A stretch of DNA of 64,000 nucleotides. It comes from Waterburya sp. Its GTDB lineage: Bacteria > Cyanobacteriota > Cyanobacteriia > Cyanobacteriales > Xenococcaceae. Each line of letters opens with the position of its first letter. Position 1 is the stretch's first letter. Of this stretch, positions 6,428 to 21,930 are shown piece after piece. The notes beneath the pieces are model-generated. The model searched no databases, had not been told where the DNA came from, and saw nothing but the letters and a program-made list of their open reading frames with translations. Location: NCBI GenBank assembly GCA_965217895.1, contig CBDCJV010000002.1:576001-640000 (forward strand), written 5' to 3'. The translations under genes were made by a program, and so were the position numbers.

Positions 6428-6520
6428 GCGATCGCTTGAAATTTGATTTTAGTTACCAATAATACTCGTCATTATCAAAGAATTACAGGATTAAACTTAG
6501 ATAATTGGAGCATTGAGTAA
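6428..6520 (+). pseudogene. C-terminal remnant of a VapC/PIN toxin
   Basis: Manual translation AIA*NLILVTNNTRHYQRITGLNLDNWSIE*, typical VapC C-terminus; begins at a HIP1 site. Confidence 0.65.
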
Positions 6521-6765
6521 ACTTTGTAACAGGTCATGGGTGCTTTATACCAAGTACGGACAATCGCGGAACTTTTGCCCTAGCTCATCGAGATGCCTAC
6601 AAAGAAGCTGAAATTGATAAACTCATCACTACAACAACTCAAATTTTTGCTAATTAAGCGCTCTACAAAACCTGATTCTAAGTTATGAGTTATATCAAAC
6701 TACATGAGTAATATAAAATAAAATACAAAAAGCCTCTATCAAAACTCAATCTTTTTCTAGAATCT

Positions 6766-8451
6766 ATGTTGGATGAAAACCTTCGGGCAATAGCAGTCAA
6801 TCCTATAAAACTTCCTGGTTTTATTAATCAGTTAGATTACATGGATTTACTTCACTTGCTAAAAGTGCCAAACTTGTCTGAATGGTTCTTAGAACAAGCA
6901 TTACAGCATAGAGAAGGACGGGTGCGGTTTTTTATTTCTCAGCATCCAAATATTACAGACAAAGTTAAAGCAAAACTAATTGCAACTGGAGATGGGGAAA
7001 GTTGCCTATATTTTGCTCGACAAAAAAATCTTAGTGATTCACTTATTTCTCAATTAGCTTCAGTAGAAATTAGAGGCTTGTATCTTTCTCTGAGTAGAGA
7101 AATAAAAAAGAAAATCAGATTTGCGATCGCAAATAATCCTAATACAAAGCTAGATATCCTACAGCAGCTAGCGGGAGATATTGAGTATACGGTAAGAATT
7201 ACTGCTAAATGCAAAATTGCATCCCATCCCCAGACCTCTTTATCTATTATCGAACAATTAGCTTTTGATGCCGAGCCTAGTATAAAAAAAGCAGTAGCCT
7301 CACGCCATGATTTGCCAATAGAGTTAATCAAAGAAATGGCAAAAGATTGCCAAATAGCTAGGAAAGGGTTTCTCATTCGCAATCTTTCTTTCAATGGCTA
7401 TTTACTAGATACGCTAGCTCAAGATTCTCATCCGAAGGTGCAACAGTTAGTAGCACTTCATCCTAATACTTCGGAGGAAACGCTTATCAGTCTAGCTTGT
7501 AATCATGCGATCGCTAGTTTGGTGTTGCAAAACCCTAACTTAACAGCAGAAATATTCGAGCAATTGGCATCTAGTAATAATTCAAAGCTATATTTTGCTT
7601 TAGCACAACATTCATGGACAAGTAGAGAAACTTTAGCCAATATTGCTGCAAAGAGTGATGATGCAGCAACCCTGATTGCTATAGTAGAAAATAATCAAGC
7701 AGGAAAGAAAACAAAAAGAGAAATATTAACCAGACTGGCTATCTTTTCTAGTCGCTCGGTACGTCGATACGTAGCAAAAAATCCTTGCACCCCAGAGAAT
7801 ATTCTATGGCGATGGGGTACATCCCAAAGATACTATAAACTGCATCCTTTTATCGCTAAGAATCCTAGTAGCTCTACAATGCTATTGGATTATTTGGCGC
7901 ATAAGTTTTTCTCTCAGAAAGTATGGGAGGGTTTAATTACAAATCCCAATACTTCTGTGGATACTTTTAATTATTTATGTTCAAAAGAACGAAAACAAAA
8001 AATTGTGAATGGAAGAAAAGTAATTGCGATCGCTAAAGAGCATAAAATTCCTTCGCATATCCTAAAAAAACTGATAAGAGCTAAACTTTATTCTGCAACT
8101 AGACGTGCTTGGTTTGCATTAGATTTAGACGATGAACAGCAAGAAGTTGCTTTTGAGATAATCGATAAACTAATAAAGGCTTATAGAGCTTACTGTAGAG
8201 GATTTTATTATAATCGAGATCGATCATATGATATTTATTTAATCCAAAAATGCGATCTACCCCTCGCAACTGTAGAATTTCTTTTAGAACAGATTGCTCA
8301 AAGTCGCCAAGCTGATAAACGTAAATTTGCTGCTAGACATCCAAAAACCCCAATATCTGTCTTAGAAACTTTAATCGAAGATGAGGATAGAGGTGTAAGG
8401 GATGCTGCTATTTTTCGCTTGCAGCAAAGACGAGACAATAGATTAAATTGA
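6766..8451 (+). CDS. Leucine-rich-repeat-variant (LRV/HEAT-like) repeat protein
   Basis: Recurring VR..VA.NPNT....L..LA units, e.g. IANNPNTKLDILQQLA and VALHPNTSEETLISLA. Confidence 0.85.
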   Translation: MLDENLRAIAVNPIKLPGFINQLDYMDLLHLLKVPNLSEWFLEQALQHREGRVRFFISQHPNITDKVKAKLIATGDGESCLYFARQKNLSDSLISQLASVEIRGLYLSLSREIKKKIRFAIANNPNTKLDILQQLAGDIEYTVRITAKCKIASHPQTSLSIIEQLAFDAEPSIKKAVASRHDLPIELIKEMAKDCQIARKGFLIRNLSFNGYLLDTLAQDSHPKVQQLVALHPNTSEETLISLACNHAIASLVLQNPNLTAEIFEQLASSNNSKLYFALAQHSWTSRETLANIAAKSDDAATLIAIVENNQAGKKTKREILTRLAIFSSRSVRRYVAKNPCTPENILWRWGTSQRYYKLHPFIAKNPSSSTMLLDYLAHKFFSQKVWEGLITNPNTSVDTFNYLCSKERKQKIVNGRKVIAIAKEHKIPSHILKKLIRAKLYSATRRAWFALDLDDEQQEVAFEIIDKLIKAYRAYCRGFYYNRDRSYDIYLIQKCDLPLATVEFLLEQIAQSRQADKRKFAARHPKTPISVLETLIEDEDRGVRDAAIFRLQQRRDNRLN

Positions 8452-16841: not shown

Positions 16842-18098
16842 TTACGACGATAGATTGAGCTTCTCTTCAATACTAGCACCAGGATTATGCTCCCAGCGAT
16901 CGCCTACATGAGCATAAATTGAAGTAGTCCTGGGATCGGCATGACCTAATAAGTCTTGAACCTGTCGCAAGTCCGAACCAGTTCTTAACGCTAATGTACC
17001 AGCAGTGTGTCTGAGGCTATGAGCAGAAAGAGTTCGACCAGAAGTATGTTTGAGATTGGTAGTTTTCAAATAGCTATCAATAATTGCTCTAATGCTACGT
17101 CTAGATAATTCCTTGCCCTTACTGTTATTGCTTAAGGAGACAAAGACACAATCAGTAGGTTTAATTTTTCTTCTCAAGACTTTTTGTCTTATCTGGAGAT
17201 ACTCGTCTAGTTGTGTGGCTAAGTTTTCCGTTAAAGGAACAACTCTACTAGCTCGTTTAGCCGATACTTGTAGTCCTGTTTTCAACCCTTGCCTGACAAT
17301 ATCTTCTATCTTTAGTTGATGCATCTCAACCGTTCTGCATCCTTCTACACTCATAATGCCAATTAAAATGCGATCGCTCATGAACATCAATCTTTGCTTG
17401 TTAGTTCTAGCTTCGTTTAATTGAGATTGAATATGGTCGAGCAAAAACTTTAATTCTTCTGCCTCCATGAAGGTAATCCGAGCAGCAGGGTCTTTCCTAT
17501 CTTTGGGTGCTTTGATGTTTTGTGCAGGATTATTTTTTATTAATCCATGAGTTAATGCTGCCTTGTAAAATATCCTGACAATGTTGAGCTTAGTTGCGAT
17601 CGTGCTATTTTGGTAGCCAGATTGAACTAGATATTGTCGATATAGCTTGATATCTTCAGCATCCGCCCCTAATGGCTCAAATAGATTTTCTTTACACCAA
17701 TCTAAGTACTGTTTGGTCTAAGAAATATAGGAGCGAACAGTATCTGCTGAAGCTGCACCATCTCCTACCTCAAGTTGAAGAAACTTGGCAAATATCTGTT
17801 CTATGTCAAAGACAAAAGTTGGTACAGCTTGCGCCGATTCTAGCTTTTGAACCGCACTAGTTTCGAGAGTTGCAGATTCTGACTGCGTTTCTTTAACAAG
17901 GCTTCCGCCTTGGAAGGTAGGAGGCACAAAGGACTTGTCCGCATGTATACAGGAGACAGAAGGATTATCCTTTAAACCTGTTCTTTTGGGGTCTAAATTC
18001 CCGTCCGAACAATTGACCTTCTGCCCTCTGCCCTCAAACTTCTGCCTCTCTTTAACTGCTACGGGAATTATGTTTATTTCCATTTTGCTACTTTTCAT
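16842..18098 (-). pseudogene. XerC/D-like tyrosine recombinase/integrase interrupted by an in-frame TAG at 17718-17720
   Basis: Catalytic GCR, HSLRH, LLGH and IYAH are present. Reading through the stop gives TKQYLDWC...[15 protein letters not shown], in frame with both ORFs. Confidence 0.88.
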
Positions 18099-20102: not shown

Positions 20103-20479
20103 GTATAGTGTTGGTTGACCAACGGTCAAGGCTTGTGATAATTTTTCCGCTCGTGTACGTCTTTTAGTCAACTAGCAGCCTCTTGCTCTTTTGTTTTCTA
20201 CCCTCACCCTAGTCAGTTAGCGTTTGATTCAAAACAGTTAAGCTTAAGCCTGTTTGATAAAAACTAACATCAAACAGACTTCACTCTCAAGGATTAAGAC
20301 AACCAGAGTTGGAAGAATATATCAAAAAGCTTCTGAATTATCTGGAGGCAGAGTATGGAATTGATTGTTATGGACTAATTTATTGGTTAAATCCTGCTGA
20401 CTGTCCAGAATGTCAACAAAAATTGATTGAATAAATTGCAGAAGTTTTCATCACATCTTAGAGAAAAAAAGAGTTCAAA

Positions 20480-20523
20480 GTTAGTTCTAGCTAAAATATA
20501 CTATATAAATAGCTAGAACTAAC
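20480..20523. repeat. 44-bp palindromic site (14-bp arms, 16-bp spacer), left copy
   Basis: GTTAGTTCTAGCTA-aaatatactatataaa-TAGCTAGAACTAAC, perfect arms. Confidence 0.9.
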
Positions 20524-20530
20524 AGTTAAA

Positions 20531-21178
20531 ATGCCAAAAATCTGTTCTTATGGATTTTCCTGCGCCTCTATGCTTCTTCAGCCAGGACTGACGGCAGAAG
20601 ATTGTCCCAACCAATCAGTTTGCGGAACTATAATTCAACTTACAGAAGAAGAACAGGCTCAATTGTATGAAGCCAGAATGGAAAATAATCGCCGTGTAGT
20701 CCAGACAGTATTGATGTCTCCACAAGAAACAGCACAAAGACTATTAAACGATCAAGGTTGTCCTCAAACGAATGAAACTATTGGTGTAGAAGAGTCTATT
20801 GCCGCTCTAATCGATCGCATAGCTCAATGTCAGGAAATAATTGCCGAACTATCATCATCTTATGTTGCTCCACCAGGAGCAGAGGCACATCGTTATTTAG
20901 TCAAACGCCCCTACGCCACCTACCAATATAATAAATTAACTAGCAAGGAAGCCATCTTCCCACCCCAACAAGAGTCACAAGAAGTAAAGGTACTTCACCT
21001 TTCTAGAGATACAGATCCTAGAAACATCTTAGGTAGATCGGGAATTGAACGCAGAAATAGAATTCTCTTACTCAAAACTCAAATAGAAAAAGCTACTAAT
21101 ATTCTATTTGATGCTATTGAAACCGTTTCAGCTACTTCAATAGAAGAGATTGTCGCCGAAAAGATTTTTGTTGAATAA
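20531..21178 (+). CDS. Uncharacterised 215-aa protein with an N-terminal Cx5C-x13-Cx5C motif, enclosed by inverted palindromic sites
   Basis: Intact ORF; Cys at positions 5, 11, 25 and 31; basic/aromatic HRYLVKRPYATYQYNKL segment. Confidence 0.8.
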   Translation: MPKICSYGFSCASMLLQPGLTAEDCPNQSVCGTIIQLTEEEQAQLYEARMENNRRVVQTVLMSPQETAQRLLNDQGCPQTNETIGVEESIAALIDRIAQCQEIIAELSSSYVAPPGAEAHRYLVKRPYATYQYNKLTSKEAIFPPQQESQEVKVLHLSRDTDPRNILGRSGIERRNRILLLKTQIEKATNILFDAIETVSATSIEEIVAEKIFVE

Positions 21179-21221
21179 TTAATAATTTTGTTTTTTGTTT
21201 TGTTTTGTTTAAAGATTGGAA

Positions 21222-21265
21222 GTTAATTCTAGCTATATACATAATACACTTTAGCTAGAACTAAT
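21222..21265. repeat. 44-bp palindromic site, right copy (inverted relative to the left copy)
   Basis: GTTAATTCTAGCTA-tatacataatacactt-TAGCTAGAACTAAT; its reverse complement matches the left site at 37/44 positions. Confidence 0.9.
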
Positions 21266-21349
21266 CTCCAGAAGCAATTTCCAATTTTTCTTTTGCCTTG
21301 TCGCTGGTAATAACTAAAGCGATCAAATCAATTAATAGCCTTAGAGAAG

Positions 21350-21930
21350 ATGAAACAGTTTATCCAGACTCCCAGACACAAAGGACTTGTCCGCATGTCA
21401 TATTTTAGATTAACTGGCTATGCTGGCACTGGTAAATCATTCCTGATCGTTCAGTTAATGAAATGGTTACTAAATCAGAAAATTAACTTTGTTGGTGGTA
21501 GTCCTACCAATAAAGCAGTTAAAAATCTCAAGCAAATGGCATCAGAAGCTCAGGTAAGCATCGAGGCTCATACCGTGGCGCAGCTATTGGGACAACAGCC
21601 AGAACTCAATGAAGAAACAGGGCAGGGCGAATGCCCAGATCGTCGTCTTCGACGACTGGCAAAGCTTTGCTTTGCGCGAAGAGTTTATTACTAAGGGTAC
21701 TGACAGCATCGGTGGCTACCAAGTTGCTTTGATTGATGAGTTTTCGATGATTTCCAAGTCCAATTTTAAAGATATCAATCAGGCTGTTTGGCATACTCCA
21801 ACCAAGGTTATCTTTGTAGGCGACGATGCCCAATTACCACCTGTAGGAGAGTCAGAGCCGATTATTGCCACCCATGAATACATAAAAGATGAAGCTACTC
21901 TCAGCTCGGTTGTAAGATATGACGGAGATA
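21350..21930 (+). pseudogene. RecD/Dda-like SF1 helicase fragment
   Basis: GYAGTGKS, SPTNKA, LIDEFSM, FVGDDAQLPPV, VVRY; frameshifted by a 52-bp insertion and cut by IS630 at the TA at 21929. Confidence 0.88.

Follow-up and report, generated by a model that had tools for sequence, protein, structure and literature searches.

The window, a 64,000-nucleotide stretch on the 5.2-Mb contig, one of two that make up this cyanobacterial genome, carries a gene for a 215-aa protein between two palindromic sites in inverted orientation. The protein family and its sites are real and conserved. In its mode of action the module resembles regulators already known from transposons, although it fits none of the families tested, and a literature search found no description of the palindrome-plus-gene combination. 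Sequence comparisons strongly imply that the protein binds its own sites. We give about an even chance to a reading in which it is a non-catalytic repressor and boundary insulator, that is, a sequence-specific DNA-binding dimer that would repress its own gene and insulate or bridge the ends of the element.

The unit in the window and its surroundings

The upstream site has the core GTTCTAGCT-N18-AGCTAGAAC at 20484..20519 (no strand assigned). Its arms extend without mismatch to 14 bp (20480-20523), leaving a 16-bp spacer and ending 7 bp 5' of the ATG (20531). The gene occupies 20531..21178 on the forward strand; its product was assigned to an unnamed cyanobacterial family from its relatives and predicted structure, and contains four cysteines spaced C5-x5-C11-x13-C25-x5-C31. 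The downstream site (core 21226..21261, no strand assigned, differing from the core sequence at one position; 21222-21265 in its 44-bp form) begins 43 bp 3' of the stop codon (21178). The two sites are identical at 37/44 positions in inverted and 27/44 in direct comparison, and their 16-bp spacers at 11/16 and 1/16. The paired 14-bp arms, their distances from the gene, the inverted matches and the cysteine spacing had been described in a sequence-only reading of the window, and every coordinate and count in it was reproduced here. The 14-16-14 geometry stressed in that reading is present in the window sites, but the part that is conserved is a 9-18-9 core; over the corresponding 18-bp spacers the window pair matches at 13/18 positions inverted and 3/18 direct.

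A promoter role had also been suggested for the left site. A consensus scan placed a promoter-like sequence at 20474..20502 on the forward strand (-35 TTCAAA, 20474-20479; -10 TATACT, 20497-20502), with 9/12 consensus matches. The -10 falls within the spacer of the upstream site, and the -35/-10 pair overlaps that site, in line with the suggestion; the scan is a weak one, giving 7 hits in the region against 3.9 ± 2.1 in shuffles. From its position the upstream site is likely to be an operator over the gene's own promoter as well as the left edge of the unit, and the downstream site is likely to be an end or boundary site.

The palindrome is not a common repeat of the 5.29-Mb genome. Its 14-bp arm occurs five times at ≤1 mismatch, four times in the two sites and once in a nearby integrase gene, and a search for 44-bp sites allowing ≤3 mismatches per arm returned just these two. 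By tblastn the genome has one copy of the ORF. A perfect 14-16-14 palindrome alone is not rare (16 in the genome); the site is beyond chance because the same core adjoins nearly every homologue (57/58; a reversed-pattern control gave 1 match in 462,089 bp). A 13/14 arm match at 17400-17413, inside a truncated integrase ORF (16842-17468), is probably due to chance. Outside the window and far from the gene, a solo core site lies at C2:4519776-4519811 (L097); on one side a group II intron reverse transcriptase gene ends, and on the other a convergent DUF6876/Gp157 operon.

The surrounding region is plasmid-like and integrated; besides toxin-antitoxin pairs and an IS630 it contains a truncated tyrosine integrase, the remnant of one helicase and a strawberry-notch helicase that is broken. 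Both genes beside the unit are broken, as had been noted, but the unit did not break them. On the left, outside the unit, lies the 3' remnant of F1a (20286..20434, forward strand), a conserved 155-165-aa plasmid gene whose 5' part was lost in a 705-bp deletion at 20285/20286. On the right lies a RecD2/Dda-like helicase remnant (21350..21928, forward strand). Its 5' part has lost about 560 bp near 21325, its frame is shifted by a 56-bp insert (21622-21677), and IS630 cuts it at ~21929. In same-genus relatives the helicase is intact and followed by a third site, the intact order being F1a, site, ORF, site, helicase, site, F1b; variants of this order among relatives lack the middle site or the helicase. 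The same gene order with undamaged flanks in close relatives, one of which served to measure the two deletions, indicates that the breaks in the window are later deletions and insertions. The 56-bp insert is absent from other contigs, has many similar copies in same-genus genomes and is likely to be a miniature transposon. F1a and F1b (L137:3071-3535 and 6437-7036) are abundant genes that travel with a tyrosine integrase in elements of Nostocales and Pleurocapsales; neither matched Pfam or NCBIfam at 1e-5.

Protein family, sites and insertion sequence hosts

A search returned 185 relatives, of which the named ones are cyanobacterial and none carries a Pfam domain; a profile built from long and short forms returned 577. 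A match was present in 30 plasmid records, 27 of them nearly full length, and these were annotated as hypothetical. The ORF and its family had no match in Pfam, NCBIfam or PHROG, a PDB sequence search gave 0 hits, and a Pfam scan of 39 family members was also without a match. The earlier statement that no DDE, serine-recombinase, tyrosine-recombinase or HUH motif is recognisable in the protein agrees with the lack of a transposase match in the three family libraries.

AlphaFold predicted a low-confidence N-terminal cysteine region, a helix (86-107), three strands (118-126, 129-137 and 154-158) and a second helix (163-201). Modelled alone, the domain reached a pLDDT of 92 with a beta-beta-beta-alpha arrangement, and residues 116-180 include 12 K/R against 7 D/E. 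The four-cysteine pattern was found in 52/55 long forms and in none of the short forms, which are ~126 aa long and retain the helix-sheet-helix core. Conserved in the alignment of long and short forms are P, three Y, K, L, F, H, L, R and R; no D/E column reaches ≥70%, so that no acidic catalytic triad was found in it. An HUH/Y1 transposase of the IS200/IS605 type was considered and rejected: there is no family match, H120 is not kept in short forms, and the motif reads HRY.

Fold searches with the whole model returned helical hairpins only, and those with the domain model gave nothing significant in the PDB or viral libraries. The best domain fold, a PH domain at Z 3.6, is at noise level. No significant fold match of any kind came out of the search, and the idea that the protein itself recombines DNA found no support. 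In the Atlas the nearest clusters were DUF6788 (0.88-0.90) and MobI (0.84-0.85), which are leads only. The protein is likely to be a sequence-specific DNA-binding dimer. In three relatives (P0219, P0238, P0239) the DNA-binding-like domain is preceded by a fused N-terminal domain resembling a degenerate GIY-YIG, the Pfam model GIY_YIG_2 reaching only E=0.11 (P0219). L176 and L206 form a distant branch, and the upstream palindrome of L176 differs, with 12-bp arms of the AGTTAGTGGAGG type and a 16-bp spacer.

Sites were searched in 70 long-form loci as GTTCTAGCT-N16-19-AGCTAGAAC with ≤3 mismatches. Some of these loci are near-identical or were fetched twice and so are not independent; merging near-copies left 36 distinct upstream contexts. 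If the module is real, homologues should be flanked by paired palindromes, as the sequence-only reading had argued. Upstream this was so in 57/58 loci with an intact 5' end (≤110 bp 5' of the gene, mostly 6-27 bp before the ATG). Downstream it was so in part: a site lay near the stop in 30/62 loci with a 3' end and was missing from 32/62, including most Nostoc. In several lineages the downstream site falls within the last codons, and some units read site, gene, cargo, site. The expected covariation of arms with protein was observed, site type following protein clade. The protein tree splits long from short forms (99/97); long rows have the long-spacer site and most short rows a 9-bp-spacer site, 4/19 short rows having neither short pattern. 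The exact pattern occurred in 7/401 genomes, including all three with the long gene; among the others, one retained part of the 3' end of a unit, and in two the spacers of the sites were G+C-rich.

Spacers are A+T-rich, and those of partner sites are unrelated. The inverted spacer match of the window is a local accident or shared history and not a rule of the family, because 19 pairs gave identities of 0.44 direct and 0.42 inverted. Systematic spacer flipping was considered and dropped, with one case in 56 pairs. In that case, L222 differs from L253/L264 by an 18-bp spacer flipped between its arms (15/18 vs 10/18), which may reflect passive template switching; in L026 the spacer is itself a perfect palindrome. 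Hairpin covariation was likewise rejected: pairing within a site (0.425) did not exceed pairing across sites of the same element (0.447, p=0.29), and the pairing of arms beyond the core is lineage consensus, not a hairpin signal. A scan of viral contigs with the pattern gave 13 matches, with no family ORF among those listed (inspected by eye); most lie inside ORFs and look like chance.

In Nostoc loci L033-L052 the shared sequence stops sharply ~50-125 bp upstream, at a conserved block 5' of the site, and again 20-50 bp downstream, shortly past the stop; most lack a second site, and the sharp borders are possibly the ends of a larger element.

Short homologues lie inside multi-copy IS4 elements with sharp ends, and also beside ISKra4 and NF041680-type transposases. 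Their palindrome is GTTC(T/G)CG-N9-CG(A/C)GAAC or a variant. All 7 IS4 copies whose two ends are visible (4 sources) have one site 48-50 bp inward of each terminal repeat and another at the promoter of the small gene; a divergent copy has its site at 34 bp. Three sites, in a variant particular to the element, were also seen in a second IS4 type, in an ISKra4 (41-44 bp inward of either end) and in an NF041680-type element. The notion that the sites are transposon tips does not hold in general, since the true ends of IS hosts are 34-94 bp further out. Five gene-less IS4 relatives (transposase 56-61% identical) have no such sites, with one weak match in 10 ends, and their left repeat is 60-72 bp from the transposase; two of them are multi-copy, with 3 and 7 copies. 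Because these relatives lack the sites yet multiply, the module is optional; presence of the sites depends on the gene, and they do not serve as the ends proper to the transposase. As an accessory part the gene appears to have been acquired by several unrelated jumping genes. L007 and L013 are short IS4 derivatives that carry the small gene between terminal repeats and have lost the transposase.

Empty alleles and sites away from the gene

At a Leptolyngbyaceae-type plasmid locus, seven loci carry site, gene and site after a conserved gene and its terminator, and four others (80-87% protein identity) lack the gene and have no site at ≤3 mismatches. When the 722-724 bp bounded by the outer arms are removed, five filled alleles become collinear with three empty ones to within about -1 to +3 nt, the flank gene being 89-94% identical between them; a sixth filled and the fourth empty allele were too diverged for the fit. 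Since none of the three empty alleles contains the gene or either site, and the edges fall at the outer arms, the gene with both sites is a true indel bounded by the sites. The self-contained unit proposed earlier was borne out to this extent. At this one locus, with its three empty alleles, the outer arms coincide with the indel edges within ~3 nt, as terminal inverted repeats would. TA is present on both sides in 3/6 filled alleles, and the lengths fit no fixed target duplication; none was found at the F1a-F1b junction. The filled alleles look like one old event, which may have been an insertion or a precise loss. A second, rougher empty allele matches within ~5 nt on the left. Gene-less F1a-F1b loci were left out as empty sites, most representing another F1b lineage and one an eroded remnant. 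In L237, L238, L240 and L040-L074 a second conserved palindrome (ATTGTCCAAG...CTTGGACAAT) lies beside the insertion point in the right flank, and its 6-bp centre occurs in either orientation.

Other expectations for a mobile or invertible unit were disappointed. Dispersed near-identical copies with new flanks were not found; the unit is single copy here, and in genomes with two or three copies these lie in larger shared segments or differ from each other. No inversion or circle joint was among those listed for four contig sets, in which rare variants are dropped by assembly into contigs.

Relatives' genomes contain extra sites away from the gene. After exclusion of five upstream sites miscalled by the gene finder and one at a contig edge, 20 of 26 far or solo rows were kept. 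Of these, 13/20 lie ≤50 bp from a gene 3' end (21% by chance) and 2/20 lie ≤100 bp from a start (40% by chance). Grouped by hand, 8/12 contexts are at 3' ends (p ~0.001), two of the eight being doubtful; the excess comes from ~12 independent contexts with heuristic gene calls, and insertion bias could yield the same pattern. A convergent/divergent test on downstream sites was set aside as partly circular. The arms of far and solo sites stand at 0-1 mismatches while their flanks are 77-78% alike. At one far-site locus, alleles without the site carry hairpin-plus-T terminators in its place. In one locus an intrinsic terminator persists adjoining the site. After one conserved gene the sequence changes right behind the site in three ways. 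A complete genome whose alleles lack far or solo sites also lacks the gene, and one genome (82% complete) has a solo site and no gene that was found.

Proposed function, alternatives and related systems

If the protein is a repressor and insulator, it would bind its sites as a non-catalytic dimer, with two beta-sheet domains, spaced by antiparallel helices, reading the two half-sites. A spacer longer by about one helical turn in the long form (20-22 bp against 9 bp between 7-bp half-sites) may be due to its additional N-terminal part. At the promoter site binding would give negative feedback on the gene itself, and a divergent transposase or integrase gene could be co-repressed from there; Tn3 resolvase at res is a precedent for co-repression. 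For the end sites the most likely role would be that of roadblocks to transcription in both directions, possibly joined in a loop, that keep it from passing into or out of the element, and in IS hosts they may also gate access of the transposase to the inverted repeats. Cyanobacteria are not known to have Rho. The long form of the window, with no transposase beside it, would move rarely, with plasmids and integrated elements. Consistent with this reading are the upstream site in nearly every locus, a site type that follows the protein tree, the three-site layout in insertion sequences and the lack of sites in gene-less IS4 relatives, the placement at 3' ends, the kept arms, the terminators found in place of one far site, the absence of a conserved acidic column, the basic beta-beta-beta-alpha domain model with its weak ties to arm-binding and AP2 domains, and the Atlas leads. 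Against it, a pure regulator does not explain the precise indel, which needs a separate insertion or slippage event. The 32/62 long-form loci without a 3' site, the small number of independent contexts behind the 3'-end excess, the noise-level folds and the lack of profile homology to MobI also count against it, as do the terminator that persists beside one site and the gene-less solo site.

The precise indel is the best support for a reading as a minimal mobile element. On that account, which is unlikely, the long form cuts and joins at the outer arms by Tyr/His/Lys/Arg chemistry without DDE, the short forms have been domesticated in insertion sequences and the solo sites are remnants. It draws on the collinearity of filled and empty alleles, the flanking TA, the rougher second empty allele, the neighbours of the gene, which are very varied, the conserved Y, Y, K, H, R and R, the cargo between gene and far site, and the three-way sequence switch behind one site. 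It has to contend with a single copy in this genome, a best locus that looks like one old insertion, the lack of a consistent target duplication or of a circle or inversion joint among those seen in the four contig sets, solo sites too well kept for scars, and IS hosts with sites in subterminal positions, where movement is the work of a DDE transposase. Stated at its boldest, and again doubtful, this would be a new class of tiny mobile element, in which a 126-215-aa protein with none of the DDE, serine, tyrosine-recombinase and HUH folds binds its palindromic ends and itself cuts or joins them. The element would pick up cargo such as helicases and toxin-antitoxin pairs, and IS families, at least three of them and unrelated, would have domesticated it to pair their ends. 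A MobI-like adaptor, which would bind the sites and recruit in trans a transposase, tyrosine integrase, relaxase or helicase, seems to us rather unlikely. The Atlas neighbours, a predicted topology like that of MobI and the fixed spacing from IS termini suit it, as do the site just 5' of the gene, as described for oriT-mobI in the available passages (PMC13635750; PMC5587640), and the company of the gene: an integrase family in 12/70 and the F1 families in 15/70 long-form loci, with three kinds of helicase adjoining the gene across loci. But no sequence or profile homology to MobI was seen, the partners are unrelated enzymes with no single docking surface evident, and the gene-less IS4 relatives reached 3-7 copies without it.

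Two further accounts were weighed. The palindromes could be RNA or single-stranded DNA hairpins, serving as terminators or stabilisers, with the protein incidental or bound to the folded form. The 3'-end placement fits, and across sites the arms pair beyond the core more than shuffles do. The pairing excess is lineage consensus, however, the spacer length is fixed and no terminator-like hit was obtained, which makes this account very unlikely. Least probable, and barely credible, is an invertible or lox/dif-like cassette with crossover inside the spacers and orientation setting inversion. The inverted match of the window spacers, the one allele pair with a flipped spacer and the integrases often nearby speak for it; the random spacer orientation over 19 pairs, the unlike spacers of partners, the single flip in 56 pairs, the lack of inversion joints in the contigs and a gene orientation fixed within each syntenic group speak against it. 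A tyrosine recombinase would call for a shared 6-8-bp spacer and for one site left at the empty locus; the spacers here are 16-19 bp, and the four empty alleles keep no site.

MobI (PF19456), of IncA/C plasmids, SXT/R391 ICEs and mobilisable islands, resembles this family as a small mobile-element protein with predicted long helices and a three-stranded sheet. According to PMC13635750, MobI binds DNA just 5' of its own gene, with a single ChIP peak at oriT/mobI, and associates with itself; the model is of an antiparallel dimer containing two three-stranded sheets. oriT lies just upstream of mobI in the passages available from PMC5587640 and PMC7449626. The upstream site of our loci suggests a comparable arrangement. 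Unlike the MobI site, that site is a simple palindrome repeated at the gene and the element ends; no link to a MOBH relaxase was seen, and the hosts include insertion sequences. Profile comparison with a 28-sequence MobI alignment (hhalign) gave probabilities of 0.1-0.3%, with no Pfam match, and MobI is an analogue of this family, not a shown homologue. DUF6788 (PF20586) provides the nearest named Atlas clusters, the top one carrying DUF6788 on 19% of its members, but its Pfam model matched 0/39 family members scanned; no description of its function was found in the literature. The DUF6788 and MobI Pfam models had no match in the genome itself or in 151 + 61 cyanobacterial genomes, where the controls were silent too, so that this is no proof of absence.

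The arm-binding domains of lambda Int (2WCC, Z 3.1) and HPI Int (3JTZ, 2.8) and the AP2 domain (6SY0, 2.6) share the predicted beta-beta-beta-alpha topology, but their scores tie with PH and chemokine folds, and the present protein is a stand-alone one without a catalytic domain. Tn3 resolvase at res, IS1 InsA and IS3-family OrfA bind their own element, and sites for host IHF occur inside IS ends. The module is like these in having a site between the divergent small gene and transposase and sites adjoining the inverted repeats; it differs in its unrelated fold, in dedicated palindromes at both ends and the promoter, in being optional and in being common to unrelated transposase families. Passenger genes are known in insertion sequences: the available passages describe an extra gene between inverted repeat and transposase in IS231-type/IS4 elements (PMC2266710) and four ISKra4 elements with unknown genes (PMC3942029). 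Paired palindromes or a shared passenger family are absent from those passages, and the supplements may list some of the elements.

The surprising part is the reuse of the module by unrelated IS families in a fixed three-site layout. Mobile elements have to keep a check both on transcription that crosses their ends and on that of their transposase genes, and here the protein brings its own operator. If the repressor and insulator reading is right, the module would add a layer of transposon control in cyanobacteria, in IS families and plasmids, and its natural series of protein-site pairs with different spacers could be used as orthogonal repressors or insulators. It would also give a first functional handle on the DUF6788/MobI-like neighbourhood; were the protein catalytic, it would be a new type of transposase. 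In several Nostocales the long gene, perhaps as cargo or at an element end, also stands directly after tnsABCD or tniQ/tnsD of Tn7-like elements, in L113 (NZ_CP064882.1, 42-6657), L033, L039, L003, L064 and L075.
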